Assembly (NCBI GenBank): GCA_002269645.1
Contig: NIVC01003469.1
Span: 32,377 to 96,376, forward strand
From: Macrostomum lignano
Lineage: Eukaryota
Direction of reading: 5' to 3'
DNA: 64,000 bases
In this document: piece by piece, positions 23,324-42,433 of the stretch
Numbering within the stretch: position 1 is the stretch's first letter
How the letters are laid out: every line of letters begins with the position of its first letter
Translations under genes and position numbers: made by a program
The notes under the pieces: generated by a model
The model's input: only the letters and a program-made list of their open reading frames with translations
Database searches by the model: none
What the model was told of the DNA's origin: nothing

Positions 23324-23656
23324 AGTAGTATTTACGGTACAAAATTGCCAGCAAACCGCTCTCATAATTCAAAGAGAATTAACCCTTTATCAGTGTGAAA
23401 TGGCTCGTTTTCCCTTCATTATCGCTCGTCTTCACTTCGCTTAACTCGCTTCTCTCATCCTCGCTTCATTTCGGTCAATCTCCTCATTTCACACTTACAA
23501 CGATTAATTCTCTTTGAATTATGAGAATACGCCCTCGTCGTTCGCTTTGGTTTGCTGGCAATTTTGTACCGTACCCAACACTTCTAACACTTCCAAATCT
23601 CTATAACCCCTCGCACGCGCCGCAGGCGCGAAGGGTCTTTTTCTGTTACTAAAAAT
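23324..23656 (+). repeat. Left TIR, 333 bp
   Basis: Reverse complement of 38952-39284. Confidence 0.97.
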
Positions 23657-23667
23657 AGAACAAAAAA

Positions 23668-24066
23668 ATGACACACGTTACTTATATGCAAAATCTGAAT
23701 GAATTGCAGGTAGGAGACCCAGTTGAATACCGAGGTGAGGGGCTTTTTGATGTGGTTGGAACAGCAGCGAATTTTGTTAAAGACAATATGGGTCTTATAG
23801 GGCAAGCAGGCTCCGCAGCAGGTTCTATAACAAATGCTGTAAAAGGAGGAATTGAAGCAGCTAGAGCGGCAGAAGAACTAAAGAAATTGAGAGATTTTAA
23901 CGACACCCTCTCACAAATAAATGCAATAAAAGATTTAAAGCTGGCACAAGCCGCACAACCAACAGAAACCCCCACGAAAAGCGCGCCAATAAGTAATAAA
24001 GATATTCAGGATTTTAATAAAATGTTAACCACAATTAAAGGCGGAAAAGGATTAAAGAAATTTTAA
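23668..24066 (+). CDS. Polinton ORF, 132 aa, Gly/Ala-rich, possible virion core/membrane-active protein
   Basis: AAAATG start; amphipathic Gly/Ala segment; GEGLF and GKGL motifs. Confidence 0.75.
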   Translation: MTHVTYMQNLNELQVGDPVEYRGEGLFDVVGTAANFVKDNMGLIGQAGSAAGSITNAVKGGIEAARAAEELKKLRDFNDTLSQINAIKDLKLAQAAQPTETPTKSAPISNKDIQDFNKMLTTIKGGKGLKKF

Positions 24067-24076
24067 CAATATAAAA

Positions 24077-25051
24077 ATGGACACAGATAATAACCGCTTA
24101 TATTTTATAGGAGAAATTGTAGATACTTTAGATCTAGATGATAATAAACATAGCCACACAATGTTAAAAAGATTGGATCGTTTAGGTAAAAAACTTGACT
24201 ACGATATCGATACATTTAAACTTGCTGCAAAATATGCACAAGAAGGAAGGCCAATATCCTTTAAGAATCATGGTAGAAATTATAGGTTGACAGACTCCGA
24301 TGTAAAATTTTTATTGGAGACTCACACTAAAAAAGACGGTGGGTTGTTACCTATTTTACCAATTCTTTTAGGCCTCGGAGCAGCCGGAGCAGCCGGTTTA
24401 GCAGGTAAAAGAATTCATGATAACCGAAAACAGTTAGCAGAATTAAAAGCAAAACAAGGAGGAATATTGCCATTAGCAACTTTATTACCAATAATTTTTG
24501 CAGGAATAGGAGCAGCTGGTGGAATAGCAGGGGGCGCAGCCGGAATCACAAAAGCAGTAAATGATAAAAAAGCTGCGGATGAAAAAGCTAAACGAGATGC
24601 AGAATTTCAAAGACAGCAAATAACACAGGACGCACAATTCAAACAGAAACTTATTGATACCATTAATAGTAGTTCAGCAACAGCAGAGCAAAAAAGAAAT
24701 GCAGAAGCTAGGTTAGCAGCCGGAAAAGGTTTACTGTTAAATGGCAACGGTTTGGTACTAAAAGGAACGACCCAAGGAAGCGGAGTTGTCGCAGATAAAC
24801 TACAGGAATTTGGTCAAACTTTAGAAAAAACGGGTGAGAAAGCTAAAGGATTTTTTGATAATATTGGAGCTAATTTTAGGCCAGCAGTTCAGAAGATTTT
24901 TAATAAGTTAGGAAAAGATTTTAACATAATTGAAAAACACGATGGAAGCGGATTATATCTCGAAATGAGACCAAAAGCAGGTTCAGGAATTTTCTTAAAT
25001 TCAAATGTTATGGGAAATGGATTGCTATTACCAAAAGCAGATCTCGAATAG
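24077..25051 (+). CDS. Polinton core-protein precursor, 324 aa, with two adenovirus pX/mu-like hydrophobic segments
   Basis: GGLLPILPILLGLGAAG and GGILPLATLLPIIFAGIGAAGG resemble adenovirus pX (GGILPLLIPLIAAAIGA); repeated GxG-hydrophobic motifs. Confidence 0.75.
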   Translation: MDTDNNRLYFIGEIVDTLDLDDNKHSHTMLKRLDRLGKKLDYDIDTFKLAAKYAQEGRPISFKNHGRNYRLTDSDVKFLLETHTKKDGGLLPILPILLGLGAAGAAGLAGKRIHDNRKQLAELKAKQGGILPLATLLPIIFAGIGAAGGIAGGAAGITKAVNDKKAADEKAKRDAEFQRQQITQDAQFKQKLIDTINSSSATAEQKRNAEARLAAGKGLLLNGNGLVLKGTTQGSGVVADKLQEFGQTLEKTGEKAKGFFDNIGANFRPAVQKIFNKLGKDFNIIEKHDGSGLYLEMRPKAGSGIFLNSNVMGNGLLLPKADLE

Positions 25052-25135
25052 GCTCCTGGGGGGAGGGTCTGGACACCAAAAACCCAAAATTAAAAAATCA
25101 ATAATTCAAACATTATATAAATTTTATTCTATAAA

Positions 25136-28100
25136 ATGGAACAAAGAATGACCCCAGATCAGATTCGACAACTTCTTGCAAATGAGCGCCAACAGTTCAA
25201 TCGATTACAAAGACAGATTGAACAAATTGAACAGCGCCAAAGACAACAACGCCGCCAAAGAGCAAGAGAAAGACAGAGAGAAAGGCAGAGAGAAAGAGAA
25301 ATACAAGAACAGCAAATAAATGCATTAGCAAATAATATAAGGGCAGAATATGAAATGAAGCGATTAATAGAAAAGGCTGAATATGAAAAAAGAATAGCAG
25401 AATTAGAAAAAAACCAAAAGAAACCCACACGTCGGAAACCTCGGAATAAATCGGATGAAAAACCATTAGATGAGTTTATTAGGGTTTATCGATTTGAACC
25501 AATGCAGAATGTCCTAGATTTTATTGAAACCCAGCTTTCAAACGGATATAGTGTTGAAATTACTAATGCGAGGGTACAATATTTTTATAATAAAACCGGA
25601 GATGATCGCGAAGAGATTAATCAATACTTAGCAACATTTTATAATATAAGCCAATTTCAAGCTTGGTTTAAGCATTTGGTAGAAAACTACGACATGAATT
25701 TAAGTGTGTTTTCTGGAAGACTTAAAATGACACCAAACGAAATTACACTTAAACACGAAAGGTCAAAGCAGGGTATGGGAACAAATGTCATGTGTGAAAT
25801 TGCAGAGTATAAAGATGAGTACTGTTACATACCTAGTGATGGAAATTGTTTCTACAAGTGTGTTCAGTTTATTTATGGTGATAAAGCCCCATCCAAAGAC
25901 GAATATGGTGCTTGGTTGTACGACTCAAGAACCCAAAGAGGATTAATGACAAATTCAAGAATTGGAAAATTCAATGAATATTTTAATCTTAATATAGGGC
26001 TGTATAACCCTAATAATCGTGGAATTGAACCAAAGTCTCAAAGAGGGATTCACCACGACTGGTTATTAATAAATTACTATCACACAGCCGACTATCACAT
26101 TGGTCATTATTGCCTTATATCCAATAAACAACGAGGAATCGCCCTCGAACGGATAAAAGACAATTATAAAGTAGTATTTAAAAACCCAACGCCCGAAAAT
26201 GTTAAAGAGCTAAAAATGTTCACCACATCCACAAATCCCAAAAAATCAAATGTATACATATTTGATTTTGAAACATATTTAAATTATAATCAACAAGCAT
26301 GTCCGTATGCAGTTGGTCTTTTAAACTATAACGACTTTTCTAATAATTGTAACGAAACCCCAGAGACAATAAAGAAACTAACTAAGATCTTGATATCAGA
26401 TCGCGGTTGTGATTTTCAAACTGGTGGAGATAAAATGGACTGTGTTAGAAAAATGTTTAAATACCTTGGTACAGTTAGGTCAAAAAAGATTGTTTTGATC
26501 GCACACAACTCATCCCGCTTCGATTCATACATACCACTATTTTGTAATATAAAACCAATTAAAATTCTTAAAACCCCAAGAGGAATATTATCAATCACTT
26601 TTGTAAACGATTATATGTCAAAAGAGGTTAGAGCGTTTATAAACAAAGATAAGAAGAAGAATCATAAGGATTCGAAACAAACCATTACGATGCTTTGTTC
26701 ATATCAACACGCATCAATGAGTTTAAAAAAGTTTTGCTCATCAATGACAATTAGAGAGGATTTGCGCAAGACCTCAATGGTTCACGACATTACTGAGGAC
26801 GACTACCTAGAGCGCACGGATGAATGGTATGAATATTTACAATTTGATCTTATTTCTTTATGTGCCTGTATTCATAAGTATAATGAAATAGCATATGAAA
26901 TTGGAGGAATGACAATGTTCGATACTCTTACCTGTTCAAGTTTAACATTAAAATGTTGGTTTAAAGATTTTGTTAGAGTTGAAGACAAAATGAAACAATA
27001 CCTAAAGACAAAAGAAAAAAGTAATTACATTAAAAAAGTTGAAGAAATAATATCTCCGTTAAAAATCGAAGATTATTTTGACTTGAGCAAACTTGATAAA
27101 GCGAAATATCAAACACTATTAAGAAAAGAATTTTCGGTTCACTCTCATACCAACCCTTATATAAGAAGGTTTATGAGGGACGCAGTCAAAGGAGGCAGAG
27201 TATTTGCACTAATAAATAAATACGAAAGTGACTGTTTTCAAACAATTGTAGACGTTGTAAAAGGCCATTTAAAAATACCAACAAGCGACCCATGCGAGGT
27301 TATATCAACTTATCTCAAAAGCGATATGGAAGAAAAAAAGAAAATCGCAATTAAACTAAAAAACCAATTGGGTACCGTATCAGATTGTTTAATGAATTTT
27401 GATGGAGTCTCGTTGTACCCATCTGCTATGTCTGATAAGGATAGTGAATATCCAAGAGCAGAAACAGCCAGAGTTTTTGATATAAGCGAGGAAAAAGATT
27501 TTTTGACACAATTTAATTCACAAACCTTTCGACCAAAAACAGCGGTTTTAAAGATTATGTATGAGAACCCTACCAGCGTTTTTCTTCAACATCTCCCATC
27601 GAAAGATAAAGAGAAATTTTATAATCCGGAAACAAAAGCAAACGAAACAAAAACATTAAATAGGTTTAGAAATGGAAAGGTAATCGACACCTTAAGTTCC
27701 GTAGACATACAAGAAATTGTAAGAATGGGTGGAAAAATATTTAAGATATATAGTGGAATTGTATATGAAAAAAATTACGATTTCTCTCCGTTTCAGAATT
27801 ATATTACAAACCTTTTTGAAATGAGAAAAGTATTTAAAAAAGAAAATAACGAGGCGGGTTCTGAATTAGTAAAAACATTGTTAAATTCCTTATATGGTAA
27901 AACGGTTCAAAGAGACATTACTTTCACAACGCATCTCTGGAATTTGAATACATTAAAAACAGAATACGACGACACAATTAAGTCATATGAGAAAATATGT
28001 GACGATTTATTTTATGTTGAAAAAAAGAAAGACACACAAGAATATTTAGATGAGGATGATAATCCTACAACAGGTCTTTGTCCGGCACAATTAGGAATAT

Positions 28101-28606
28101 TTATCTTAGCTCATTCAAGAAGGATCATGAATAATTTTATCACCTCTATAGACGGTTCAAAGACTCCAGAAATTTATTACGGTGATACGGATTCGTTATA
28201 TATACATAAAAAACATTGGGACACATTAAATAAAAACGGGCATGTTGGAAATAATTTAAGTCAAGGAAAAAACGATTATGGAGAGGGCGGAATTATATTC
28301 GGATATTTTATTGCTCCTGAAATTAAATATTGTCTGTTATTGAAAGACGATTTTATTATGGAAGAGAAAAAAACATTTAAAGGATGTGCAAACGATAAGA
28401 TTAATTTTGCATCGTTTAAAACTTTATATGATGGACAGTCAATAAAAGTAAATAATAATGCTCCGTGGAAACGATCGTTTGAAGGCGGTATAAAAATTCC
28501 TCAAAGCGGATCGACCATATCAAAAACATATACTTCTACGATAAACACATTTAAAAGAGAAAAACCGGATAAAAACGGAGTTATGAAATCAATAGCCTTT
28601 TTGTAA
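25136..28606 (+). CDS. pPolB: Protein-primed family B DNA polymerase with N-terminal vOTU-like domain, 1156 aa
   Basis: Exo I FDFET, Exo II HNSSRFD, Exo III YLQFD; Pol A DGVSLYP, B KTLLNSLYGK, C YGDTDS; OTU-like SDGNCFY..GHY. Confidence 0.97.
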   Translation: MEQRMTPDQIRQLLANERQQFNRLQRQIEQIEQRQRQQRRQRARERQRERQREREIQEQQINALANNIRAEYEMKRLIEKAEYEKRIAELEKNQKKPTRRKPRNKSDEKPLDEFIRVYRFEPMQNVLDFIETQLSNGYSVEITNARVQYFYNKTGDDREEINQYLATFYNISQFQAWFKHLVENYDMNLSVFSGRLKMTPNEITLKHERSKQGMGTNVMCEIAEYKDEYCYIPSDGNCFYKCVQFIYGDKAPSKDEYGAWLYDSRTQRGLMTNSRIGKFNEYFNLNIGLYNPNNRGIEPKSQRGIHHDWLLINYYHTADYHIGHYCLISNKQRGIALERIKDNYKVVFKNPTPENVKELKMFTTSTNPKKSNVYIFDFETYLNYNQQACPYAVGLLNYNDFSNNCNETPETIKKLTKILISDRGCDFQTGGDKMDCVRKMFKYLGTVRSKKIVLIAHNSSRFDSYIPLFCNIKPIKILKTPRGILSITFVNDYMSKEVRAFINKDKKKNHKDSKQTITMLCSYQHASMSLKKFCSSMTIREDLRKTSMVHDITEDDYLERTDEWYEYLQFDLISLCACIHKYNEIAYEIGGMTMFDTLTCSSLTLKCWFKDFVRVEDKMKQYLKTKEKSNYIKKVEEIISPLKIEDYFDLSKLDKAKYQTLLRKEFSVHSHTNPYIRRFMRDAVKGGRVFALINKYESDCFQTIVDVVKGHLKIPTSDPCEVISTYLKSDMEEKKKIAIKLKNQLGTVSDCLMNFDGVSLYPSAMSDKDSEYPRAETARVFDISEEKDFLTQFNSQTFRPKTAVLKIMYENPTSVFLQHLPSKDKEKFYNPETKANETKTLNRFRNGKVIDTLSSVDIQEIVRMGGKIFKIYSGIVYEKNYDFSPFQNYITNLFEMRKVFKKENNEAGSELVKTLLNSLYGKTVQRDITFTTHLWNLNTLKTEYDDTIKSYEKICDDLFYVEKKKDTQEYLDEDDNPTTGLCPAQLGIFILAHSRRIMNNFITSIDGSKTPEIYYGDTDSLYIHKKHWDTLNKNGHVGNNLSQGKNDYGEGGIIFGYFIAPEIKYCLLLKDDFIMEEKKTFKGCANDKINFASFKTLYDGQSIKVNNNAPWKRSFEGGIKIPQSGSTISKTYTSTINTFKREKPDKNGVMKSIAFL

Positions 28607-28975
28607 TAGAGATCACATGCTCTGCCTATTAGAAGCCCTGTACATTAAGACCAAACAGCCCACGTTAAATAACCAACTTGCGATGGGTGGGGCTAGCCGT
28701 CAACTCAGAATTTTTTAGCTGATTTGTCAATGACCGGACTGGCTTGAAACTGATATGCACTTTACCCAACCAATACTGTATCAAAAATTGATTACTATGT
28801 ACAAGTTTTAAACCATCAATTAAAAACTCAATTCAACTACTCTTGTTACTCTCAACTATCTATATATACTGAATATTCGTTCAAATTGTTTCTCAATAAA
28901 AAGACCCTGACGATGTCCTAATGCAAATGGACGAAATGCATCGGCAACTCAAATAATACTTCATGTTGATATTTA
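28605..28975 (+). mobile_element. 5'-truncated Penelope-like element fragment inserted between pPolB and the convergent ORF; right boundary approximate
   Basis: 28605-28718 translates NRDHMLCLLEALYIKTKQPTLNNQL..LRIF*, matching the C-terminus of PLE GIY-YIG endonucleases; followed by AATAAA (28895) and a hammerhead-like motif. Confidence 0.75.
28903..28946 (+). ncRNA. Minimal type I hammerhead ribozyme motif (PLE-type)
   Basis: CUGACGA-(U)-GUCC..GGAC-GAAA, palindromic stem III AUGCAU, AUC cleavage triplet ending 28942; stem I weak (CC/GG only). Confidence 0.6.
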
Positions 28976-28982
28976 CCTTTAT

Positions 28983-29399
28983 TTATCTACTCTTCATCAA
29001 GCGAGCCACTTTACCTGATTTATATTTTTCCTTTCTTTTTTTAAGATATAATTTAATTGCTAAAAGTATTGATAAGTTTCTGATTAATTCAAAACCCGAT
29101 ATTGAACCAATTGCAATACCTAAAAATAATTGAGATAAATTAAGAGTTGGAATAGATTGTAAAATACCTAAAATGATTACACATAACATCGATAAGCTTC
29201 CAAAACCAATATTGAAAAAATCCATATTTCTGATATGATTTGAAACTCTTCTTACTTTTTTAGCATATAAATCATAATCATAGTTAATACGATCAACATT
29301 ACTTAACATGTGACCCTTACGTTGGTCGTGCATAGCACGCGAACCTTCGGTTCGGTCAAAATGGTCACGTTCCCTTTTATCTGCTTCAGACACCGACAT
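28983..29399 (-). CDS. Polinton two-TM membrane protein, 138 aa
   Basis: AAAATG start; two hydrophobic helices; basic C-terminus. Confidence 0.75.
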   Translation of the reverse strand: MSVSEADKRERDHFDRTEGSRAMHDQRKGHMLSNVDRINYDYDLYAKKVRRVSNHIRNMDFFNIGFGSLSMLCVIILGILQSIPTLNLSQLFLGIAIGSISGFELIRNLSILLAIKLYLKKRKEKYKSGKVARLMKSR

Positions 29400-29483
29400 T
29401 TTCGTCTATTTTTAATAGCACTAAAATGAATTCCCCGCGCTCTTTGGGGATTTGTCCCGAGCTCAATAGGTATTGTATTGGAG

Positions 29484-29714
29484 TTATTCTTTCTTTTTCT
29501 CCCATTTAAAACCTATTTTCCAAAACTCTTGAAGGATAATATGGTTTTTTAATAATTTAATTAATTCTTGAAGTTTCTTATTATCCTGAACATTCACTCC
29601 ACTAAATAAAATTCGCGTATGAGATTTAAAAGTTTTTATATTTGATTCTTGTTTAGGAATTGGAATGATAACATTATTATTTTGTCGCATCGATGGTGTT
29701 CTACTAAAAGCCAT
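29484..29714 (-). CDS. Polinton small basic ORF, 76 aa
   Basis: TATATAAAATG start; abuts the fibre stop; co-oriented with the structural block. Confidence 0.6.
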   Translation of the reverse strand: MAFSRTPSMRQNNNVIIPIPKQESNIKTFKSHTRILFSGVNVQDNKKLQELIKLLKNHIILQEFWKIGFKWEKKKE

Positions 29715-29730
29715 TTTATATAGAAATATT

Positions 29731-31716
29731 TTATATTGCTACAGGCGGTTGTTCCAAATATGCAGTCGCAGCAAAATCATAGCCTGCTGATGTGCTACCA
29801 CAAACGGCGGCACCACGAATAAAATGTGCAGCATCTGCTCCTCCAGTTCGAGCACCAAAACCCATAAGAGTTCCCGTTTTATCCAAAGTTCCCCAAGTTC
29901 CGCTATCATATGTAAAAAAGTTTTGCCCAATTAGCGTGTACACTTTGGTTGAAACATTGTATGTGCTTATTTGATACCAAATTCTTTGATTAAGAATATT
30001 TATTTCAAGCAGATGCCAATCACCATTATCAATATTTGCATAAGTTATTGTTTGATCGGCGTCGTTAAGAACATCATTACGAACTGTTGCTCCGTCTGAT
30101 TTTATATTACTCCAAACAACTCCAACTCTGTCAGTCCACTCACTCGCAAACACTATCAAGCCGGCGTTGGTTGTTAATCCAGATCCAAATTCAGTTGTTG
30201 GCCGTTCGTGACAATATGCATAAAACCAAACAGCGTCAGCACCATCTCCTGCAGAATTAGCAACTCGGAAATAGAAGGAGGCGGAGATATTACGAAAATG
30301 GGTGAAATTGAATTGTAACGCTCCAGACCGACCCGATGCTTCATCAGTAATTCTAGCACCATTTTGATAATCAATATATACAGCATCTCCAACAAAACTT
30401 CCAGTTGGAAAAATATCGCCGGCAGTGGTTGGGTTTTGATACCCAGTCCAATTACAAATTACGGGTTCGTACAAATCGGCATCAATCGCAGGTATTCCAT
30501 CCAATTTTATTTTATCGTTAAAAGACATTCGGCCATCTGCCGTTTGTGTTACAACGGTATCAACATAACCCTTAGTAACAACAGAACTGTTATCGTTTAT
30601 AGTAGAGATATTAGTAATTGTATTACCACCCATATCAATTGATTGATTAACTACTCCTAAATTTAAATCAAGAATTGTAAAAGTCTGTCTATAAATCTGA
30701 AAAGTTGCCAAGCCTGGGTTGGTAGAACCCGATGTTGATGTAAGACAGAACAATCTGAAATATGAATATGTTTTATCAAAATTTTGTGTGACATTAATTG
30801 TTTGAGTTGAATTATTTATTTCTACAGAACTATCCGCCGGTATTAAAACATCCCAACTTGTATTGTCATTACTCCCCTCAAATCGCCATGATGCTGGGTG
30901 TTCGGTTGAAGGTGATGGTCTCCCACGTAAATCAATTTTATAACACATTATCGCGGAAGGGCATTGGACTTGAATCCAATAATCAGTTTGAGTATTATTT
31001 ATTGCCCAATCTGTTGAGTCATTTCCATCAAACGCTTTCCAACTTGCAAAATCAGTTGTATTAAATGCGGTGCTTGCGGTTATTGCAAAACCATTTCCGC
31101 TCCAATCTGCCATTGTTGGTATGTGGCCAGTTTCAACCGTTTGGAATCGATCCTGTTTTGGGGCTCCACCTCCAACTAAATTATCAACTTCAGTTTTGGT
31201 ATAAGAATCAGCTATATTCCGTTTTAAATTTAAGGAATTATCCACCTCTGTTTTGGTATAGGAATCGGCAACGTTCCGTTTTAAATTTAAGGAATTATCC
31301 ACCTCTGTTTTGGTATAGGAATCTGCAACATTCCGTTTTAAATTTAATGATGTGTCGATTTCAGTTTTGGTGTAGGAATCAGTTATATCTCTTTTTAAAT
31401 TTAAGGAATTATCAACTTCAGTTTTGGTGTAGGAATCGGCAACATTTCGTTTTAAATTTAATGAATCATCTATTTGAGTTTTGGTATAGGAATCTGCAAC
31501 ATTTCTTTTTAAATTTAATGAATCATCTATTTGAGTTTTGGTATAGGAATCTGCAACATTTCTTTTTAAATTTAGTTTATTATCAATTTCAGTTTTTTTA
31601 TAACCTTCATCTTCATTAATATATCGGTTATCTCCGAATGTAACACTTATACCACCAGTTGTACCACCACCAGTACTTGTTGTTCCGTTCCATGAGGGCG
31701 TTCCAGAAAATAACAT
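29731..31716 (-). CDS. Fibre/receptor-binding-like protein, 661 aa
   Basis: Seven 19-aa repeats NLKRNVADSYTKTEVDNSL; F5/8-type C/discoidin-like module (AFDGN..W..YWIQ..W.FEGSND..W); tail-fibre-like linkers MGGNTITN..TKGYVD and GRMSFNDKIKLDGI; C-terminal L-type lectin/ConA-like region (GDGADAVWF). Confidence 0.75.
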   Translation of the reverse strand: MLFSGTPSWNGTTSTGGGTTGGISVTFGDNRYINEDEGYKKTEIDNKLNLKRNVADSYTKTQIDDSLNLKRNVADSYTKTQIDDSLNLKRNVADSYTKTEVDNSLNLKRDITDSYTKTEIDTSLNLKRNVADSYTKTEVDNSLNLKRNVADSYTKTEVDNSLNLKRNIADSYTKTEVDNLVGGGAPKQDRFQTVETGHIPTMADWSGNGFAITASTAFNTTDFASWKAFDGNDSTDWAINNTQTDYWIQVQCPSAIMCYKIDLRGRPSPSTEHPASWRFEGSNDNTSWDVLIPADSSVEINNSTQTINVTQNFDKTYSYFRLFCLTSTSGSTNPGLATFQIYRQTFTILDLNLGVVNQSIDMGGNTITNISTINDNSSVVTKGYVDTVVTQTADGRMSFNDKIKLDGIPAIDADLYEPVICNWTGYQNPTTAGDIFPTGSFVGDAVYIDYQNGARITDEASGRSGALQFNFTHFRNISASFYFRVANSAGDGADAVWFYAYCHERPTTEFGSGLTTNAGLIVFASEWTDRVGVVWSNIKSDGATVRNDVLNDADQTITYANIDNGDWHLLEINILNQRIWYQISTYNVSTKVYTLIGQNFFTYDSGTWGTLDKTGTLMGFGARTGGADAAHFIRGAAVCGSTSAGYDFAATAYLEQPPVAI

Positions 31717-31726
31717 TTTTTACTGT

Positions 31727-32194
31727 CTATTTTATAGAGTCTAAAATCGCCCCGTAGGGTCGCATACTTTGTATGATCCCTTTAAAGTCTTCGGGTCTTT
31801 CCTTAGAGTTATTAATTTTATATAAAAAATACAACGCCGCTTGCCCGCAATAACTTTTATCAAATGTTTGAAATTGTTCGTGATAATCTCCACATAAACG
31901 ATTTTTAGTATGATTAAATTTATCTTTTATTTCCTGTAACGGAGGAAGCGCGTATGAATCAAAAAAATAAACAAGTTTAGGTTTGGAATAAACTGCCGAC
32001 CAATGAACACCGTTTTCTTTTGTTGTTTCAATATTAACAATGAAAGATCCATATTTTGGTAAGTCTTTTATCTCATCCCGCATAACACATCTGAATGGTT
32101 TTATTTTTAACTGCCGCGCCCAATTTGTTAATTCGATATTGCTTGTTGTGTCTGTTCCATATCTTTGTTTAAAATCATCCCACGTTAGTGCCAT
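31727..32194 (-). CDS. PRO: Adenain-like cysteine maturation protease, 155 aa
   Basis: GVHWSA (His), FFDSY (Asp), FQ..SYCG (Gln/Cys). Confidence 0.93.
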   Translation of the reverse strand: MALTWDDFKQRYGTDTTSNIELTNWARQLKIKPFRCVMRDEIKDLPKYGSFIVNIETTKENGVHWSAVYSKPKLVYFFDSYALPPLQEIKDKFNHTKNRLCGDYHEQFQTFDKSYCGQAALYFLYKINNSKERPEDFKGIIQSMRPYGAILDSIK

Positions 32195-32195
32195 T

Positions 32196-32369
32196 TTATG
32201 TTCCTGAAAAACTCTTGGTTTTAGTTAGTTTTGTAGGTTTAGATTTTAACAGTTCCTTTCGGATTTTTTCTGCTTGAAGGTGTTTCAATTTTGTTAATTC
32301 GATTTCATAATTATCCTTTGCATTTTGAACTTTATCTGATTGTTTTTTTAAAACATTGTTGTTACCCAT
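32196..32369 (-). CDS. Small Lys-rich ORF, 57 aa (MGNNNVLKKQ...KSFSGT), absent from the ORF track
   Basis: Hand-translated; CTATAGTAAAAATG start; fills the mCP-PRO gap, stop 1 nt before the PRO ATG. Confidence 0.65.
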   Translation of the reverse strand: MGNNNVLKKQSDKVQNAKDNYEIELTKLKHLQAEKIRKELLKSKPTKLTKTKSFSGT

Positions 32370-32413
32370 TTTTACTATAGGAAACGGACGAAGTCCTCGC
32401 CCCTACGGGGCGG

Positions 32414-33199
32414 TTAAACCTGTTTTATCCGTAAAATTACCGTTATTGATTGCCCACCAAAACTTATTAATCTATCGCTTTCATCTACAATCCTAATATA
32501 AATTGATTGAACACTATATTGAGTTAAAGGATAATATATTGGGGTTTGGGGTGAAACAATCATTTTCTCTCCAATTGGAACAGCAAGAAACGGGATTGAA
32601 TAAATAATTCCACGTTGAACCAAAACTCCGTTATCGTCTGTTATATAACCACCGTTTGATATGTCGGTTGTTATATTAATTGTATTAACTCCACCCTCAA
32701 TATTTCCAACTGTATCGCCGGTGCTTGATGTGGTAACGATTCGGGAATTAAATCCGAGTATGGTTCTGAGTGAATTTGCAATTGTGAAATCAACCTGATA
32801 TCCGGATTCGAGTGATAGTGTGAATCTGCCAGATGGTAAATCAACCCCTATAACAATTGCGCCTGCAACCCAATCTCCATTAGCTGTTAATTCTCCTTCT
32901 ATATAAGCATTCAAATCGGTATAAGAATATGCTCCTGGGTTAACGCTAAATGTTGTCCAATTGGCTCCGGAATCTTTAGAATATCTAAATTGATTATTTG
33001 TTGCATTAATTAATTGAGGCATGTTAAAAACTGAAAATAGTATCAAACCTATTTGATAACTTAGGCTTTGATCGAGTTGTAACGGATCACGCAATTGAAT
33101 GCGTTGTTCACTGGTTGTCATTATAAACTGTAAGGTTGTACTAAATTTTGAATTAGTTCGATCTACCAATTGTTTTATAGTATCTAAATTTGTAGCCAT
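32414..33199 (-). CDS. mCP: Minor capsid (penton) protein, 261 aa
   Basis: Start at CTATAAAAATG (33199); beta-rich; motifs NxxFxY, PGAY, VPxGEK..P..PIYYP, IxIRIVDE typical of Polinton pentons. Confidence 0.85.
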   Translation of the reverse strand: MATNLDTIKQLVDRTNSKFSTTLQFIMTTSEQRIQLRDPLQLDQSLSYQIGLILFSVFNMPQLINATNNQFRYSKDSGANWTTFSVNPGAYSYTDLNAYIEGELTANGDWVAGAIVIGVDLPSGRFTLSLESGYQVDFTIANSLRTILGFNSRIVTTSSTGDTVGNIEGGVNTINITTDISNGGYITDDNGVLVQRGIIYSIPFLAVPIGEKMIVSPQTPIYYPLTQYSVQSIYIRIVDESDRLISFGGQSITVILRIKQV

Positions 33200-33245
33200 T
33201 TTTATAGTGGGAGAATCGGACGAAGTCCGCGTTCCGAAGGAACGA

Positions 33246-34001
33246 TCACTCCTCATCGTCTTCTTTTATCAGATCTTTTAAGATTCGATTTTTCCTTTCT
33301 AACCTAGGGTTGATATATATATATTTATATTGACTATCATCCCAAATTTTTTTACACATACTTTTGAATGGTTTTGCATCCAACCCAGGATTAAATCTAG
33401 TGTGGATATTTTGTAAATCATAGTTATCTAAATCAAACATTACACAACAGCTAGCATTCTTTTTTATAATTGATTCTAATTCTCTAAAGGATTGGGTAAG
33501 ATAAAATGCTCCAATTCCATCTCCTCTACCACTAACAAAAATTTCCTTTTGCAATTCTTGATCGCCATCATTAATACAATCATCAAAAATAATTAGTGTT
33601 TTATCATGTTTTGGAATTTGATCATAGGATAATCGGGTTGATACTCTAACAGTTGGGGCTCGGTTGTTAATGTTTTCCGGTTCTTTTGCAGTTGTTTTAC
33701 ATAAATCCTCAATGTCATCGAGTGTAAATCTTGGTTCATCATCGTCCTCATATTGCTCATATGCTCTTAACATTCTAAACAAGATATCTTTTTTTAATTT
33801 GTTTTTTAATCCATGTTTAAGAAATTCATAATATTTTATTCTAGGTTTGTTAGTATATATTAATAAATTATTATAGTCTAACATTCCATCTGTTGTTAAT
33901 AAATCGTAAACAAAGTGTGTTTTTCCTTTACCTGATCCTCCGATTACTAAACAAAGAAAAGGATCATTTGGAAATATCTTATCGTGTTTTGCCTTTACCA
34001 T
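33246..34001 (-). CDS. ATPase: A32/FtsK-HerA-family genome-packaging ATPase, 251 aa
   Basis: Walker A GGSGKGKT, Walker B LIIFDD, GRG (usually GRH) and TQ motifs. Confidence 0.95.
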   Translation of the reverse strand: MVKAKHDKIFPNDPFLCLVIGGSGKGKTHFVYDLLTTDGMLDYNNLLIYTNKPRIKYYEFLKHGLKNKLKKDILFRMLRAYEQYEDDDEPRFTLDDIEDLCKTTAKEPENINNRAPTVRVSTRLSYDQIPKHDKTLIIFDDCINDGDQELQKEIFVSGRGDGIGAFYLTQSFRELESIIKKNASCCVMFDLDNYDLQNIHTRFNPGLDAKPFKSMCKKIWDDSQYKYIYINPRLERKNRILKDLIKEDDEE

Positions 34002-34020
34002 TTTTAAAGAAATAATTTAA

Positions 34021-35493
34021 CTAAATTGGGGCGTCACGAACAATCGTGCCATCAGCTTTAGCAATTGACATATATTCCTCTAGAAACAATACGTGGGCGT
34101 CGATTGCCTGATTACCGGTTTTATTAATCTCTAACATGTAATTAAGTCCAACATTGGCTACGTTTTCTTTCTGTGCCGTTAGATCATAAACAACCACTGG
34201 ATGAATGTTTAGAAATTCTGTGGGTGTGTACTGAGGGACGGCAAATGCTTCATTTTTGACATAATCTTGATAATATTTTATAAAATCATTAACATTATTA
34301 TTTGCTATGTTTAGATTAAGGGGGTCTTTAACCGGATAATATTGATCATCAACCTGCAGGCGGATATTCTGAACATTAAACTCGTTAATAGCTGCAGCCG
34401 CATTGTCTGTTGCAGTAGCTGCTTGTGCTGCTATGGCACCGGATTGAAGCCAATATAAATCCCCATTTGTTCTTTTACTCCTTCTGTTTGTTATTTTAAA
34501 CCAAACAAAAATATATCTCACCCGACGTTTTGATGTAATTATCTGCCACTGGAATGAATCCTGGTTATTATTAATGGTTCGCATAAAATGTCGACGATTC
34601 AAATAAAATATTTCCTGATCATGCGTTAACTGATTATCGATGTGTTTTAAAAGTGGGGCTGTTACCTCAATAGTTGGTACGACTAATTGAATTGAATCTA
34701 TACGAATTGCTATATCGGTTGAAATCGAGGTTCCATAAAGTATCCTAGGCTGATATCCGCCAGATATTTGCAACTGTATCCCAAATTTTAATCCTTTCCA
34801 TACCCGATTTGGTGAGAAGAACCCAAATAGTGGAAAGATTGAAAAGTCTTGCTCATATGCTGTTGCTGTGGTTAAAACCGCGACTGGGAATTTATTCTGA
34901 CGATCTATAAAACCTGTATTAATATCTTTTGTATTAGTCATGGTGGTTACAACTGGAACTATATTGGTATTAAGATAAGCTATAAGAGCTGCGGTATCTG
35001 CACCAGCTGCGTTTTGTACATTAGGGAAAACTACTGCTTGACCATTACCCTTATCAGGCATCCACCCAACATTATCACCAACTTGTTTTGATAAATAAGT
35101 ATAATTTAAATGTTTCAAAACTCCATTATTCTCTGCGGGATTTGATGCTGTCTCAACCTCGGCTCCATTAACTGACAGTTGGGCTTGGGAAAAACATTTA
35201 TAAAACCAATCATTTTCTATTATTATTCCAGAACGATCTGCGATATCGTCGGCTGCAAGAGCAGTTCCATCATTTCTAGTATACAACCATCTAACACGGA
35301 AAAATGCGTTTTTCATATCCAATATAGTGTTGGTTGCGCCGATGTCAAAAGTTACCGTTCCAGTAGTAAAGTTATTTGAATTATCACTTGTTGGTAGGGT
35401 AAAATTTAAATCTCTTGCTCTGACCTCATTAATATACTGACGGTGCTTTTTGAAATGAAATTTATCACTCCACATAGTTTTTGTTTCAGCCAT
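34021..35493 (-). CDS. MCP: Major capsid protein (double jelly-roll), 490 aa
   Basis: Size, position next to ATPase/penton, beta-rich; motifs F..AQLSVNGAEVE, F+YLNR, RYIFVWF, QYYP, P+VVYDLT. Confidence 0.85.
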   Translation of the reverse strand: MAETKTMWSDKFHFKKHRQYINEVRARDLNFTLPTSDNSNNFTTGTVTFDIGATNTILDMKNAFFRVRWLYTRNDGTALAADDIADRSGIIIENDWFYKCFSQAQLSVNGAEVETASNPAENNGVLKHLNYTYLSKQVGDNVGWMPDKGNGQAVVFPNVQNAAGADTAALIAYLNTNIVPVVTTMTNTKDINTGFIDRQNKFPVAVLTTATAYEQDFSIFPLFGFFSPNRVWKGLKFGIQLQISGGYQPRILYGTSISTDIAIRIDSIQLVVPTIEVTAPLLKHIDNQLTHDQEIFYLNRRHFMRTINNNQDSFQWQIITSKRRVRYIFVWFKITNRRSKRTNGDLYWLQSGAIAAQAATATDNAAAAINEFNVQNIRLQVDDQYYPVKDPLNLNIANNNVNDFIKYYQDYVKNEAFAVPQYTPTEFLNIHPVVVYDLTAQKENVANVGLNYMLEINKTGNQAIDAHVLFLEEYMSIAKADGTIVRDAPI

Positions 35494-35527
35494 TTTTTTA
35501 AGTTAAAAAAGTTTTTTATGTTAAAAA

Positions 35528-36199
35528 ATGAGTCAATTTATGGACGTTGATGGAGAGTTAGCGATTTATAAAGAGAAGCAAAGATATTCTGATTTTGTTA
35601 GAAATTTGCAAAAAAGAAAGTTAGGAATACAATTAGCTGGTGAAAGATTTGCTGCTCCTTTTGTTAATCCTATTACGGGGAAAATTAGTGAACTAGAAAA
35701 AACAGATAAAGACCTTCTGGAAAAAATTGCTAAGAATACCGAGCCAAAAGAGGATGAAATTTTGGATGAGCCGCCTACTTATGATGTTGATCAAGCACTA
35801 TTGAGAGTTGCAGAAATTAGGGCTGCAGAAAGGGGTAGAGTTGAACAATATCCGAGAGCTGCACCAACTAGTATTGCTGTGCGAGATTTAGAGAATAATA
35901 ATTATCGAATTGGTGGAGTTGTTAAAAATCGAAATGAACTATATAGTGAATTGGGCGGAGCATATAATATTATTATGAACCCGAGGGTAAAATTTAATCC
36001 TGAATTATATACTAGGGATGAATTAGTAAGTGCTAAAAATTTTTATGATGAGTTAGGAGTAAGAGCTGCTAAGAATACAAGTTTATATAAAAGGATTGTT
36101 GATTCTATAAATAACAAACCGGCTGTTGGAGAAGGATTTAAAACTCCACGAAAACTTGTTTTAGCTGCTGCGAAAGCTGCTGGACATACCGGTGTTTAA
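35528..36199 (+). CDS. Polinton conserved-type ORF, 223 aa, function unknown
   Basis: AAAATG start; ends GEGF..KLVLAAAKAAGHTGV, resembling the Polinton LLxASxxAGN motif. Confidence 0.7.
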   Translation: MSQFMDVDGELAIYKEKQRYSDFVRNLQKRKLGIQLAGERFAAPFVNPITGKISELEKTDKDLLEKIAKNTEPKEDEILDEPPTYDVDQALLRVAEIRAAERGRVEQYPRAAPTSIAVRDLENNNYRIGGVVKNRNELYSELGGAYNIIMNPRVKFNPELYTRDELVSAKNFYDELGVRAAKNTSLYKRIVDSINNKPAVGEGFKTPRKLVLAAAKAAGHTGV

Positions 36200-36230
36200 T
36201 TAATTAATTGTTAAATTTATTTTTTATAAA

Positions 36231-36830
36231 ATGGATGAAACAAAGATTTGTAGTCGATGTAAAGAAGAAAAGCCTATGACGAAAGAATTTTTTAGATGGA
36301 GAAATGATTCAAAAAAATTTAGAAATGATTGTCGATCTTGTGAGAACGTTATATCACAACTGTGGATAAAAAATAATAAAGAATATCTAAAAAACAAATA
36401 TCACACTGATGAAAATTACAAACTTATTATAAACACACGAAATAGAATAAATTCTCTTCTAAAATCAAATAATGGTCGAAAAAATAATCATACTATTGAT
36501 TACCTTGGTTGCTCAATTGAGTTCTTTACTGATTGGTTAAATTTCACAAAACATTATTATGTTCCAAAAAGTTATACTGGAAAGTTACATATTGATCATT
36601 TCATTCCCGCTTCTTCATTTAGTTACAAAGACGAAGATCAAAGGAAAAAGTCGGAACATTGGACAAATAAAAGATACTTAGCTGCTTTTGATAATAAAAC
36701 TAAATTTGTTAAACAACCAACCGTTGAAGAGTTTGCAAAACAATTAGTGTTAACTTGTATTTTTAAGGCTATTAAAAATGAGCAACCGAACGAAGTTCGC
36801 GAACCTTGGGTTCGACCAATTAGTATTTGA
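36231..36830 (+). CDS. Free-standing HNH/endonuclease VII-like nuclease with N-terminal CxxC..CxxC zinc finger, 199 aa
   Basis: CSRC..CRSC; RNRINSLLK..YLGCSIE; LHIDHFIPASSF..HWTN..DNKTK beta-beta-alpha-metal pattern, as in homing-endonuclease-like proteins of large DNA viruses. Confidence 0.8.
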   Translation: MDETKICSRCKEEKPMTKEFFRWRNDSKKFRNDCRSCENVISQLWIKNNKEYLKNKYHTDENYKLIINTRNRINSLLKSNNGRKNNHTIDYLGCSIEFFTDWLNFTKHYYVPKSYTGKLHIDHFIPASSFSYKDEDQRKKSEHWTNKRYLAAFDNKTKFVKQPTVEEFAKQLVLTCIFKAIKNEQPNEVREPWVRPISI

Positions 36831-38387
36831 AGGAGGATTATTGGACGTTCAAAAAGGATTAACAAGTTTACCACCAATCTTTACTACTGGAAAATATACT
36901 GGGGAACTACACCTACCATCAATGAACTTCACAGGTTAGTCCGTGGCCTGAGTGAGGAAGGCAATGTCCTTGCTAGTCACTATTTGTGGCGACATCTTCA
37001 AATTGCGTGAAACCCGTCATACAGCTTCAAGTACCACTTCAATTGAGAAATCTTTTGAAGGAACAGAGGTAACTCCTCTTCCCAAAGGTAACAAGCTTGA
37101 AGACAAGGTGGCAATGCGCAGCCAAGCTCCTAAGTATTTTAAATATAAGGAGAAGGTTCAGAGAGCAGACGGAGATGGGCGGTAATTTAACCGCTTAAGG
37201 TGTGCTCCAGCCTCTTTCGAAAGATTGAGGGTAAACTACCCGGCACTAAGTTAGATTTGAGATTAAATCCTGATGACACTCCAAAAGCTGATTCAATTCC
37301 CATTAACGGTATTGATTGGTTAGCATACTATCATGACTTAGCATACAGAGATGCTGATAAGAACTCACCCGAGGAAGCATTAAGATTAAAACATGAAGCC
37401 GATCAAAAAATGATTCAAGGATTAGATAACTTACAAGGATTGTCAATAGGCCAAAGATTAACTCGGTGGATGGTTAAAAAGATTCTGCAATCTAAAGTTA
37501 AATTTGGTTTGGGAATTAATTACAATCAACATGGAAATAATTGTGCTGAGTGTTTACTATTAAGTGGCAGTGGGTTAAGTTCTGATAAGGCAAAGATTCT
37601 TCATAAAGAATATCGAAAACCTAAATTTTATAGAAAAATCATGAACTTCAAAAAGAATGAAATTTGGTATGCTGATTTAATGTCGATGCCGAGCGACAGA
37701 GGATATAAATATATTTTAACCATATTAGATGGTTTTACTAGATACGCGTGGGCAGTTCCTTTAAAATCCAAAAAAGGAGATGAGGTTGCTGCTGCTTTTA
37801 GAAGTCTTGATGAAAAAAGCGAAAGGTTGTGTGTTGATGAAGGAAAAGAATTTTACAATCCTCATATGTATAAATTGTATCATTTTGAAAAAGGACAAGA
37901 AAGGAAAAAGGACGCGAATGGGGAGTATATTAATAAAATTTATTCTATTTATGGAGAAAGCAAAAATGCCTTTATTGAAAGATTTAATCGAACTTTAGGT
38001 AAGAAATTGTGGTTTCAGTTTAGTCTTAATGGAAATCAAAAGTGGGTAAAAATATTACCAGACGTCGTGAAAGATTATAACAATTCATATCATTCGGCTA
38101 TAAAGATGACTCCTCAACAAGCTTATATCAGTCCTGAAAAAGTTAAAGTTACTTTTGGAGAATTTGAAAAAAATAAAAAGAAATCTTTTAAGGTTGGTGA
38201 TTCTGTTTATATCTATAAATGGAAAGATAAGTTTGAAAAGGGAAGAAAAGGATATTGGAAAATAAGTGAGAAATTTACTATCAGTAAAGTTTTAAATACC
38301 AATCCTACAACCTATATAATTGCTGATAAGGATGGTGAAGAAATATTGGGTTCGTTTTATGAGAATCAAATAATATCTGCGAACTAA
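36778..38387 (+). CDS. INT: PLA2X-integrase fusion, join(36778..36936,37239..38387), 435 aa after intron removal
   Basis: Splicing restores GELHLPSMNFTG|PGTKLDLRL (PLA2 GPG loop), then HDLAY and EAD; integrase D (YADL), D (VDEGKEF), E (IERFNRTL); AAAATG start at 36778. Confidence 0.9.
36937..37238 (+). ncRNA. Group I intron, subgroup IC1, 302 nt, ORF-less, terminal omega-A
   Basis: Hand-paired P1 (U.G at 5' splice site), P2, P2.1, P3, P4, P5abc, P6, P7, P8, P9, P9.0, P10; P/Q/R/S-like motifs AAUUGCGUGAAA, AAUGCGCAGCCAAG, GUUCAGAGAGCAGA, UAAGGUGUGCUCC. Confidence 0.93.
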
Positions 38388-38397
38388 GTTCGAACAA

Positions 38398-38622
38398 TTA
38401 CTTAAGACAACAGGGTAGTAAATTTTTTATAACAAACAAAAACAATATTATTACTATTATTGTAACTAATATAATTATTGACATTTGTTCAACAGATATC
38501 AAACTTAAATTTTCATTAAGTTCATTAATCGGCACATTTCCGATGTAGGAGTAGTTTACCTTCATTTTTTTATATATATTTTTCATAATAAATGTTGTTT
38601 CTGTTATAGAATAATAGTTCAT
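38398..38622 (-). CDS. Small single-TM protein, 74 aa from ATG 38622
   Basis: AAAATG start; TM IIILVTIIVIILFLFVI followed by KNLLPCCLK. Confidence 0.6.
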   Translation of the reverse strand: MNYYSITETTFIMKNIYKKMKVNYSYIGNVPINELNENLSLISVEQMSIIILVTIIVIILFLFVIKNLLPCCLK

Positions 38623-38638
38623 TTTTTTAATATTTTTT

Positions 38639-38953
38639 TCACATAAAAATTTCAATTTCATTCTCAGAATCACTAGTTTCATATGAGCTATTTGTTGAGT
38701 TGGAATCATCTGAACGAACCTTCCAATCATCCGAATTTAAATAATCTCCAAGTTGAAATATTAACTCACCCTCTTGCTCTAAATCATACATCCCATCCAA
38801 CTCTAATGGATAAAGTTTTAGGTCGTGCTTGTCGTCATACTTTAAATAAACTTCATCAATTATTCCATTCAAAATATGTTGTTTTATTATCTCTGCATTT
38901 TTAGCAACAGTCTCAAAAGTATCACTAACAGAAAAGGTGTAAACTCGGGTCAT
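38639..38953 (-). CDS. Polinton acidic ORF, 104 aa
   Basis: ATG at the inner edge of the right TIR (AAAAATG); intact ORF. Confidence 0.65.
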   Translation of the reverse strand: MTRVYTFSVSDTFETVAKNAEIIKQHILNGIIDEVYLKYDDKHDLKLYPLELDGMYDLEQEGELIFQLGDYLNSDDWKVRSDDSNSTNSSYETSDSENEIEIFM

Positions 38954-39284
38954 TTTTAGTAACAGAAAAAGACCCTTCGCGCCTGCGGCGCGTGCGAGGG
39001 GTTATAGAGAATTGGAAGTGTTAGAAGTGTTGGGTACGGTACAAAATTGCCAGCAAACCAAAGCGAACGACGAGGGCGTATTCTCATAATTCAAAGAGAA
39101 TTAATCGTTGTAAGTGTGAAATGAGGAGATTGACCGAAATGAAGCGAGGATGAGAGAAGCGAGTTGAGCGAAGTGAAGACGAGCGATAATGAAGGGAAAA
39201 CGAGCCATTTCACACTGATAAAGGGTTAATTCTCTTTGAATTATGAGAGCGGTTTGCTGGCAATTTTGTACCGTAAATACTACT
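38952..39284 (-). repeat. Right TIR, 333 bp
   Basis: Reverse complement of 23324-23656 with 2 mismatches. Confidence 0.97.
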
Positions 39285-41651: not shown

Positions 41652-42401
41652 TAGCTTTTTGCAGCCCATTTGGGCTTACGCGCATTGAATTTAATCTAAG
41701 ATATGTTTGTCAAAGTAATGGAGCTTTTGTCTATGGTAGCAAGGCTGGCACAGCGGCATTTAATTTGGTCCAACAAGCATCAATTTGGTCCATTTAGTTC
41801 ATTTGCAGCTCAGTCCCAGAATTGTGGACCATATGCTAGGCTGTTGAACGGATGTCATTGGCTTGTGATGGAAGCACTCGACGGAGGTGAACACCCAAAG
41901 GACATTGCAAGGTTGCTGAATGTAAAAGAAAAGGTGGTTTATTTACAGCATCCAGCAGCGCCTTGAAACTCTGCCGACAGAGATTGCCTGCGAAAGGGTG
42001 GCAATCGCCAAGGAAAGTTGCTCGAGAGCCTCAGGTCCAACTGCTACTCGATGCAGTGGAGACGAACCCTTTGTTGACGTTGCCGAAATGCAGCAGAAGT
42101 TGAGGGAACAGCTCCAGTTGGTTATCAGATTTCGACTATCAGCAGAGCTCTGGAAAAGCAACTAAAAATTTTTGGTAGAGACGCTGACATTCCAGCGGTG
42201 CGCAACAACCTGCAGACGGTTGAGAGAAGGCAAGAGTTTGTCCAATGGCTCACGCGTGTTTGGACCAAATGGATGCTTTTTGGACCAAATTAAATGCCGC
42301 TGCGCCAGCCTTGCTACCATAGACAAAAGCTCTGTTACATTGGCAAACGTATCTTGGATTAAATTAAATGCGCGTAAGCCCAAATGGGCTGCAAAATGCT
42401 A
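41652..42401 (+). mobile_element. Internally deleted Tc1/mariner (IS630-like) element, 750 bp
   Basis: TA TSD (41650-41651, 42402-42403); ~140-bp imperfect TIRs TAGC(T/A)TTTTGCAGCCCATTTGGGC; broken HTH remnant IARLLNVKEKVVY..LLDAVETNP..EMQQKL..STISRAL. Confidence 0.8.
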
Positions 42402-42433
42402 TACTAAACAACAGCAAGAAGATTATAACAAAA

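Follow-up and report, generated by a model that had tools for sequence, protein, structure and literature searches.

A family of group I introns in PLA2–integrase genes of Polintons in animal nuclear DNA, with an ORF-less member that ends in adenosine

Group I introns are known from bacteria, phages, viruses, organelles and the nuclear ribosomal DNA (rDNA) of fungi, plants and algae, and those of animals from the mitochondria of early-branching lineages (PMC3984707, PMC8393795). One sentence of PMC8393795 does name metazoans after ‘nuclear rDNA’; the sentence that follows it and the titles cited there concern mitochondrial or other introns. In protists, introns matching the Rfam model RF00028 occur in endogenous Polinton-like viruses of Paulinella, Desmodesmus and Rhodomonas and have been called restricted to a few protist groups (PMC12220804), and the polr2a and polr2b genes of Bodo saltans virus hold group I introns in nuclease-bearing ‘parental’ and in ‘offspring’ forms (PMC5871332). 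Here we describe an insert of 302 nucleotides (nt) in a Polinton (Maverick) element of Macrostomum lignano (assembly GCA_002269645.1, contig NIVC01003469.1, positions 32,377 to 96,376 of the forward strand; this whole stretch of 64,000 nt is called the window and numbered from 1), where it interrupts a gene encoding a PLA2 domain fused to an integrase. An earlier note, made from the letters of this DNA, had read the insert as a group I intron in the PLA2–integrase gene of a Polinton in an animal nuclear genome, and the analysis supports that reading.

The protist introns of PMC12220804 resemble the present one in length (about 300–380 nt) and in interrupting a protein gene of a midsize DNA virus integrated in a nuclear genome. 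However, they are reported from a short gene located upstream of that for the capsid, with no nuclease annotated, whereas the family described here has an animal host, sits at the codons for a Gly–Pro–Gly (GPG) loop of PLA2 in an integrase fusion and comprises nuclease-bearing forms, forms without an open reading frame (ORF), empty alleles and copies with a terminal A. With Bodo saltans virus it shares the coexistence of nuclease-bearing and derived introns at conserved viral codons, linked there to homing and to competition between related viruses; yet that virus is a cytoplasmic giant virus of a protist, with HNH and GIY-YIG nucleases and splicing confirmed by reverse-transcription PCR (PMC5871332), whereas the present introns belong to integrated nuclear elements of an animal, are associated with a probable PD-(D/E)xK (Eco47II-like) nuclease and are predicted to splice. 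The host gene, too, has described counterparts: the PLA2X genes of alpha adintoviruses and Polintons fuse PLA2 to a pX-like domain, and no intron is mentioned in the available part of that source (PMC8502044). They have in common with the gene studied here a parvovirus-VP1-like PLA2 domain in animal Polintons, which in our case is fused to the integrase. Homing nucleases have been described in Polintons and their relatives, with no such intron in the accessible parts of the reports (PMC10748475, PMC11296320, PMC11161782, bioRxiv 10.64898/2026.10.13.758929).

The stretch from 36937 to 37238 is a group I intron. An Rfam scan of positions 30000–45000 gave RF00028 at 36927–37229 (67.2 bits, E 1.6e-15, gathering cut-off 50), the sole gathering-level Rfam match within the window, so that the covariance-model hit anticipated by the earlier note was obtained over nearly the span it had proposed. 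The insert opens with TAG, is followed directly by CCCGGC and has a guanine-plus-cytosine (GC) content of 45%, compared with 32% in exon 2; folding energy, taken by itself, is only modest (z −1.97). Its removal joins LHLPSMNFTG to PGTKLDLRL and yields, as proposed, a product of 435 amino acids (aa) from 53 and 382 codons. Searched against Pfam, exon 2 resembles rve (E 1e-6, 29.4 bits, below the cut-off of 32.6) and, also below cut-off, Phospholip_A2_4. That full-length integrase expression depends on the intron holds for the PLA2–integrase fusion but not for the integrase as such, whose complete rve core is contained in a 325-aa ORF starting at ATG 37410. We place the insertion site between the G and the P of GPG because intron-less alleles and uninterrupted fusion proteins read straight through it. 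The Rfam model ends at G37229; the boundary at 37238 is nevertheless the correct one, since G37229 pairs within helix P9, the short pairing P9.0 forms, and intron-less alleles read an uninterrupted GPG. An intron end at G37229 was rejected on these grounds and on the reading frame of an environmental relative, the metagenome contig L120.

Folded, the insert makes up a complete group I core; it stands exactly at the G/P position of alleles that also occur without it, and the helices listed in the earlier note (P1 with U36936.G36946, P3, P4, P5a–c, P6, P7, P8 and P9) lie where it had put them and hold across relatives. Subgroup IC1 is marked by a P5abc extension with an A-rich bulge, a GAAA loop on P5b, an 11-nt receptor in P6a/b, and P2 together with P2.1. 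In the window copy, the P5a, P5b and P5c pairs and the GAAA loop were found, with a bulge at 37090–37095 and a receptor-like CCUAAG...UAAGG (CCUAAG...UAUGG in the sister intron type introduced below and in L120); P5abc, the GAAA loop and the receptor-like motif thus support an architecture like that of IC1, and we write ‘IC1-like’ because the Rfam searches gave only the general model RF00028. The guanosine-binding pair G37163–C37207 is intact, as claimed, and is present in 26 of 26 segments of the window’s own type and in 37 of 39 overall, while P7 departs from the Rfam consensus at three pairs rather than at the two for which compensatory changes had been reported. The joining segment J8/7 has G at two positions that we take to be equivalent to A304 and A306, Tetrahymena-equivalent numbering being presumed wherever it goes beyond published triples. 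As for the triples numbered in PMC10020454, the equivalents of A261, A263, G264–C311 and A265–U310 are present, and the A306–C266–G309 triple corresponds to G.G–C in all 26 type-A segments. In sum of likenesses, the Tetrahymena IC1 rRNA intron shares the P1 U.G pair, P2/P2.1, P5abc, the P7 G264–C311 site, a 2-base-pair (bp) P9.0, P10 and the equivalents of A261, A263 and A301–A302–G303; it differs from the window intron in residing in rRNA rather than mRNA and in the triple that here becomes G.G–C, and the window intron has a terminal A and one short P9 without P9.1/P9.2 (PMC10020454).

Conservation of these pairs was assessed with 84 pairs that were defined in the window copy and then scored in 39 distinct 3′ segments (26 of type A, 12 of type B, and L120) and 21 distinct 5′ segments, type A being the window-type intron and type B a sister type in a second Polinton family; L017, L049 and L119 could not be parsed and were left out. 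Pairing is present in 2870 of 3023 cells. Double-sided change was seen in 26 of the 84 pairs, many of these changes resting on L120 alone, and against the count it must be said that it has no shuffle control, that related copies enter it repeatedly and that the P8 alignment is poor in type B. Clean double-sided changes between the two types affect three P7 pairs and one pair each in P3, P4, P5a, P5b and P5c, and four P2 pairs show double-sided change inside type A.

The intron is one of many. A DNA search gave 204 candidates, of which 40 were scored, all spanning the intron, and 30 (type A) were fetched. The exact type-A P7 pattern has 114 matches in the assembly (control 0) and the exact type-B pattern 47 (control 16), the sister type being put at about 30 copies; altogether, intron copies are spread over about a hundred different contigs. 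The 764-Mb assembly also yields 86 Wnt and 140 innexin matches, and intron copies share contigs with a Wnt gene in C67, C506 and C952 and with an innexin gene in C10, C13 and C23, from which we conclude that the host is an invertebrate animal. Models for mir-124 and bantam gave no match, which carries no information on the lineage. As the Wnt and innexin matches form near-identical sets of 3–4 on separate contigs, the assembly is redundant or polyploid, and the intron counts overstate the number of independent insertions.

Type B was recovered by the Rfam-model search, in which all 28 scored candidates (L031–L058, for example L035:1013-1892; also C67, C716 and other contigs) were above the cut-off and of this type. 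Its introns interrupt the same codon as type A (HIPGYSFAG/PGT), in a Polinton family whose integrase gene adjoins the terminal repeat and whose exon 2 protein is 59% identical to that of the window. They are longer, 836–895 nt, and 10 of the 26 parsed carry a 228-aa ORF in the P2.1 loop, five more having an ORF of at least 200 aa; the reading frame of this ORF continues through the ribozyme core. Empty sites exist for both types: searching with a degenerate motif brought up 33 GPG sites that lack the intron (control 0), and the 30 of them that were fetched comprise two of type A (90% aa identity to window exon 2), 18 of type B (91–100%) and 10 other PLA2 genes. Three database proteins (P0018, P0020, P0021) are natural, uninterrupted PLA2–integrase fusions with no insertion in GPG. 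Separately, short stand-alone PLA2 ORFs of about 85–90 codons from the HxPGY motif, with an empty GPG, were noted at L061, L067, L074, L076 and L080.

Beyond this genome, the same nuclease-bearing intron at the same PLA2–integrase codon is found in L120 (RF00028, 80.6 bits). A nuclease-profile search gave 10 viral and 80 metagenome loci, and of the 111 loci screened for an intron core only L120 has one; Rfam, run on 20 of the 80 metagenome loci, likewise returned L120 alone. The other nuclease relatives (27–39% identity) are free-standing, and several of them lie on contigs that are labelled giant-virus genomes. Viral contigs searched with the intron nuclease and with exon 2 gave no match, an intron P1/P2 pattern hit 21 loci without an Rfam match in the 20 scanned, and a junction-pattern search gave three bare pattern matches. 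As the nearest relatives found are a Polinton-type intron at the same codon and nuclease-bearing environmental sequences, spread between Polintons by homing appears to be the better-supported route, compared with the protist-type ribozyme origin suggested earlier.

Homing of this kind would depend on the type-B ORF, which matches Pfam RE_Eco47II (30.1 bits, cut-off 25.9) and in which, across 16 aligned sequences (15 of them environmental homologues), E76 and K78 are invariant and E49 and D65 nearly so; it is therefore annotated as a probable PD-(D/E)xK (Eco47II-like) homing nuclease. Such an ORF, a mark of mobile introns, is present in type B and in L120, and the window copy has none. In 10 of the 15 environmental homologues (P0003–P0017), the C-terminal tail resembles a translated intron core, and the tail of P0003 (KVQRADG) matches the reading frame of the type-A P7, which suggests that the remodelled P7 also exists elsewhere alongside the nuclease. 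When intron-plus and intron-minus alleles are paired, differences cluster at the insertion site: L001 and L070 differ at 15 of 30 nt just before it versus 3 of 90 downstream, and L035 and L068 at 4 of 15 nt at the site versus 1 of 90 beyond (Fisher p 0.013 for one type-B pair). This fits co-conversion during homing, with cleavage by the nuclease presumed, or else resistance of the surviving empty alleles.

Two further ideas about mobility fared less well. A free-standing endonuclease VII-like ORF lies upstream of the intron in 30 of 30 intron-plus type-A loci (two partial) and in none of the 28 type-B loci; it is also found in both intron-less type-A loci, so that collaborative homing with it is not supported. 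Nor was a homing sweep borne out as the cause of the low divergence of the intron: third-position diversity is 0.05–0.28 by bin with no clear dip beside the intron, and a recent sweep is thus not its obvious cause. As to the upstream ORF itself, a protein search gave no homologue among 31 candidates, and in Atlas it reached only unnamed phage clusters at 0.95–0.96, with HNH at 0.88. It diverges fast between copies (mostly 62–86% identity, versus about 90% or more for the integrase), and L007 and L010, which match only its end, may carry a different nuclease.

Splicing of the window type raises a question of its own, as the last intron base, 37238, is A. Group I introns end in a guanosine, omega-G, which is bound by the G–C site during the second splicing step. 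The earlier note had this 3′ end at the right position and missed the identity of the base; omega-G is lacking in the window copy and present in the family at large, and by every other test applied the element belongs to the class of mobile group I introns. Among 116 genomic matches to a 3′-end pattern, the 100 listed were tallied by hand as 76 of type A and 24 of type B. All 24 listed type-B tails end in G, as does L120; of the 76 listed type-A tails, 56 end in A and 20 in G. The terminal A is a derived state, because the remodelled P7 is also that of type-A copies ending in G (9 of 9 fetched) and because type B and L120 end in G; the remodelling of lower P7, with G.G–C in place of the A.C–G triple, predates it. 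A tree of intron cores separates types A and B without resolving A-ending from G-ending copies. A natural precedent is reportedly Cbu.L1917 of Coxiella burnetii, a group I intron that ends in A and is said to splice at a reduced rate; that is a single bacterial 23S rRNA intron, whereas in the present multi-copy family most members end in A and have G-ending sisters alongside them in one genome.

At the 3′ splice site, P9.0 is formed by A37209–G37210 with C37236–U37237, G37229 lying inside P9, and it is intact in every listed A-ending tail. In the window copy, the exon bases that follow 37238 take part in a P10 of 6 bp, with −5.2 kcal/mol as against −2.3 for the alternative with the upstream G. 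Here the first intron bases read UAGU, versus UAAC in most copies, which extends P10 to 6 bp (36938–36940; also in L002); the extension possibly compensates for the terminal A, as one event only.

It is very nearly certain that the insert truly belongs to a family of mobile group I introns residing in the nuclear DNA of an animal. The fuller explanation that we favour, with a probability of about 0.6, is that it is an ORF-less member of a mobile family at PLA2 GPG codons, brought into animal chromosomes by Polintons, whose A-ending copies are accurately spliced in the animal. The family would spread between Polinton copies by homing: the type-B PD-(D/E)xK nuclease would cut empty GPG sites, repair copying in the intron together with a short exon tract, and the window type, having lost its ORF, would need the type-B nuclease in trans or simple inheritance. 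On transcription, the intron would remove itself by two transesterifications, leaving a PLA2–integrase mRNA; an exogenous G would attack at U36936, held in P1, and P9.0 and P10 would place the 3′ site. In the window copy, the second step would act on the terminal A in an unchanged G–C site, probably slowly. The bolder version – an active homing intron system in animal nuclear Polintons, whose dominant derivative, its P7 rewired, uses a terminal adenosine to complete splicing in polymerase II mRNA of animal cells – we hold only tentatively, as somewhat less probable than its negation.

The case for splicing of the A-ending copies comes from their patterns of divergence. Among 27 of them the intron differs by 0.029 per site, far less than the adjoining synonymous sites (0.29 in exon 1, 0.22 in the first 57 codons of exon 2, 0.16 in the rest). 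Exon 1 and those 57 codons are translated only upon intron removal; exon 1 is open in 26 of the 27, and the ratio of non-synonymous to synonymous differences (pN/pS) is 0.18 in exon 1, 0.14 in the first 57 codons of exon 2 and 0.12 in the rest. Among the runs listed for the stretch, none is on record as RNA. RNA was checked through contigs only, from 4 of 24 runs (X1, guessed to be DNA; X11, X17 and X19, guessed to be RNA). The spliced joint 36936–37239 is not among the four joints seen there, and since contigs drop rare forms its lack is no test of absence.

Several observations weigh against splicing of these copies, and most of them favour the strongest rival, in which the A-ending introns are crippled hitchhikers: functional in their G-ending ancestors, no longer usefully spliced, and multiplying because the internal ATG provides the integrase or intron-less and G-ending copies supply it in trans. 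The terminal base is A while the G–C binding pair is unchanged. P9.0 is broken in 11 of the 76 listed type-A tails and in none of the 24 of type B, so that constraint on the 3′ end, with its variable tails, looks relaxed; the most frequent A-ending haplotype (18 loci) has a weak P10 of only 3 bp (−3.3 kcal/mol, versus −2.7 for the alternative), compared with −5.6 to −10.3 kcal/mol in six of nine listed G-ending type-A haplotypes. Integrase could start at ATG 37410 with the intron still in place, the same genome has intact intron-less alleles, and exon 2 is not open in 8 of 26 A-ending copies, although these may include assembly errors. Unspliced contigs occur in runs guessed to be RNA, one of which (X19 record 28) crosses the 3′ splice site, and the exon pN/pS may predate the terminal A, the copies being mosaics. 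What a crippled intron does not readily account for is the conservation of its core far beyond that of adjoining synonymous sites among the A-ending copies themselves, the open and constrained exon 1, and the predominance of A among listed type-A copies with P9.0 intact in every A-ending tail. We therefore consider this rival unlikely, if still a serious one, and useful splicing of the A-ending copies somewhat the better bet.

A second rival would dispense with the terminal A altogether: if type-A introns were spliced at the upstream G37229, nine bases would be kept in frame as three extra residues of the PLA2 loop, and the old terminal base would be freed from selection. The Rfam model does end at that G, and the nine bases keep the frame and contain no stop in all 100 listed tails, their commonest variants looking synonymous. 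However, in 38 of 39 segments P9 includes G37229 as a paired base, P10 of the window copy fits the downstream exon better, the equivalent G in L120 leaves 8 bases and shifts the frame, and neither the 33 intron-less sites nor P0018, P0020 and P0021 have any insertion in GPG; this rival is accordingly quite improbable. Still less credit can be given to removal of most of the insert by the host spliceosome, the ribozyme fold being a relic: CAG/GTTAGT at 36935 resembles a spliceosomal donor and overlaps the 5′ splice site, but the nearest frame-keeping acceptor AG downstream would delete the GPG loop, conserved in all copies, the donor-like ends are weaker in most copies while the ribozyme pairs are conserved, and no such joint is among those listed from the contigs of the 4 runs. 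Least probable of all is an origin in a symbiont, a food organism or a mis-assembly, for although the closest outside relatives are environmental contigs of unknown host, and the element–flank join was seen at the level of the assembly, a perfect 6-bp target duplication joins the element to flanks with a DEG/ENaC channel ORF, copies lie on about a hundred contigs, some with Wnt or innexin genes, and the stretch is present in 20 runs, which come from 7 different studies on a single organism.

No prior report of a group I intron in animal nuclear DNA was found in the literature, subscription journals and the supplements of PMC12220804 lying outside the coverage. As far as this search reached, the animal-nucleus setting, the PLA2 target, the nuclease type and the A-ending majority are new, introns of Polinton-like viruses being already known from protists. 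More than 100 copies inside a protein gene in animal nuclear DNA point to integrating DNA viruses as a route past an apparent barrier, and because G-ending, A-ending, nuclease-bearing and empty alleles coexist, a single organism offers the means to test why self-splicing introns are absent from animal nuclear genes. With the family comes a probable homing nuclease, restriction-enzyme-like (Eco47II-type), in an element of a eukaryote, and its natural variants can be used to ask if omega-G and the A306 triple can be dispensed with. If active homing and splicing on the terminal A prove true, no earlier catalytic group I intron would have been shown at work in the nucleus of an animal, and the family would supply a natural series for the omega-G rule.

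The element that carries the intron (Table 1) has the marks of a Polinton: terminal inverted repeats, AG termini, a 6-bp target duplication, a protein-primed DNA polymerase, an rve integrase and a packaging ATPase. For capsid, minor capsid and protease there are candidate ORFs of suitable size and place, without a family or structure match, capsid and protease being assigned by position; the putative capsid ORF has no meaningful match in Pfam, PHROGs or PDB sequences.

Table 1. Coordinates of the Polinton, its principal genes and the parts of the intron (window numbering)
Feature	Position	Strand	Remarks
Polinton/Maverick element, 15,961 bp	23324..39284		termini AGTAGT...ACTACT; 34% GC vs 46% in host DNA
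Left terminal inverted repeat, 333 nt	23324..23656	+	2 mismatches to right repeat
Right terminal inverted repeat, 333 nt	38952..39284	-	
Target-site duplication ATCATC, 6 bp	23318-23323 and 39285-39290		perfect, both sides
Protein-primed family B DNA polymerase, 1156 aa	25136..28606	+	Pfam DNA_pol_B_2, E 8e-20
A32-like packaging ATPase, 251 aa	33246..34001	-	Pfam Pox_A32, 29.5 bits, cut-off 22.8
Probable major capsid protein, 490 aa	34021..35493	-	inferred by size and position only
Endonuclease VII/HNH-like free-standing ORF, 199 aa	36231..36830	+	PHROG 1035 endonuclease VII, E 1.1e-10; overlaps start of PLA2–integrase gene
Exon 1 of PLA2–integrase gene	36778..36936	+	53 codons from ATG 36778, ends ...LHLPSMNFTG (first Gly of GPG loop); U36936 is the 5′ splice-site U
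Group I intron, 302 nt, ORF-less, IC1-like	36937..37238	+	P1, P2, P2.1, P3–P9, P5abc; remodelled P7; terminal A
P1 (CAGGU / internal guide GCCUG), U36936.G36946	36932..36950	+	invariant in 21/21 distinct 5′ segments
P2.1 hairpin	36975..36990	+	sister type carries nuclease ORF in corresponding loop
P7, P3 3′ strand, P8, J8/7	37161..37208	+	guanosine-binding pair G37163–C37207; G37200, G37202 replace usual A
P9.0 (AG/CU), P9 with GAAA loop, A37238 in omega position	37209..37238	+	
Exon 2: remaining PLA2 domain and rve integrase	37239..38387	+	382 open codons, starts PGTKLDLRL; internal ATG 37410

Elsewhere in the element, a fibre-like ORF of 661 aa (29731–31716, minus strand) has a 57-nt unit repeated seven times in tandem, along with a discoidin (F5/8 type C) domain. 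Three ORFs were noted in the host flank: a single-exon DEG/ENaC channel (12434–14296, minus strand; Pfam ASC, E 6e-35), an open 1277-aa Gypsy-like gag-pol recognised by inspection (7512–11345, plus strand) and a 734-aa ORF without a Pfam match (20402–22606, minus strand).

Palindromic repeats of about 30 nt (CGAAC...GTTCG type) occur as presence/absence insertions at 36783–36815, 38381–38396 and 32381–32415 of the window, and possibly represent a miniature mobile repeat. Run contigs show 33-nt skips at 36781–36816, at the first of these, and repeats of the same type are found in the peripheral loops P5, P5a and P6b of the sister-type introns L031, L045, L051 and L053.

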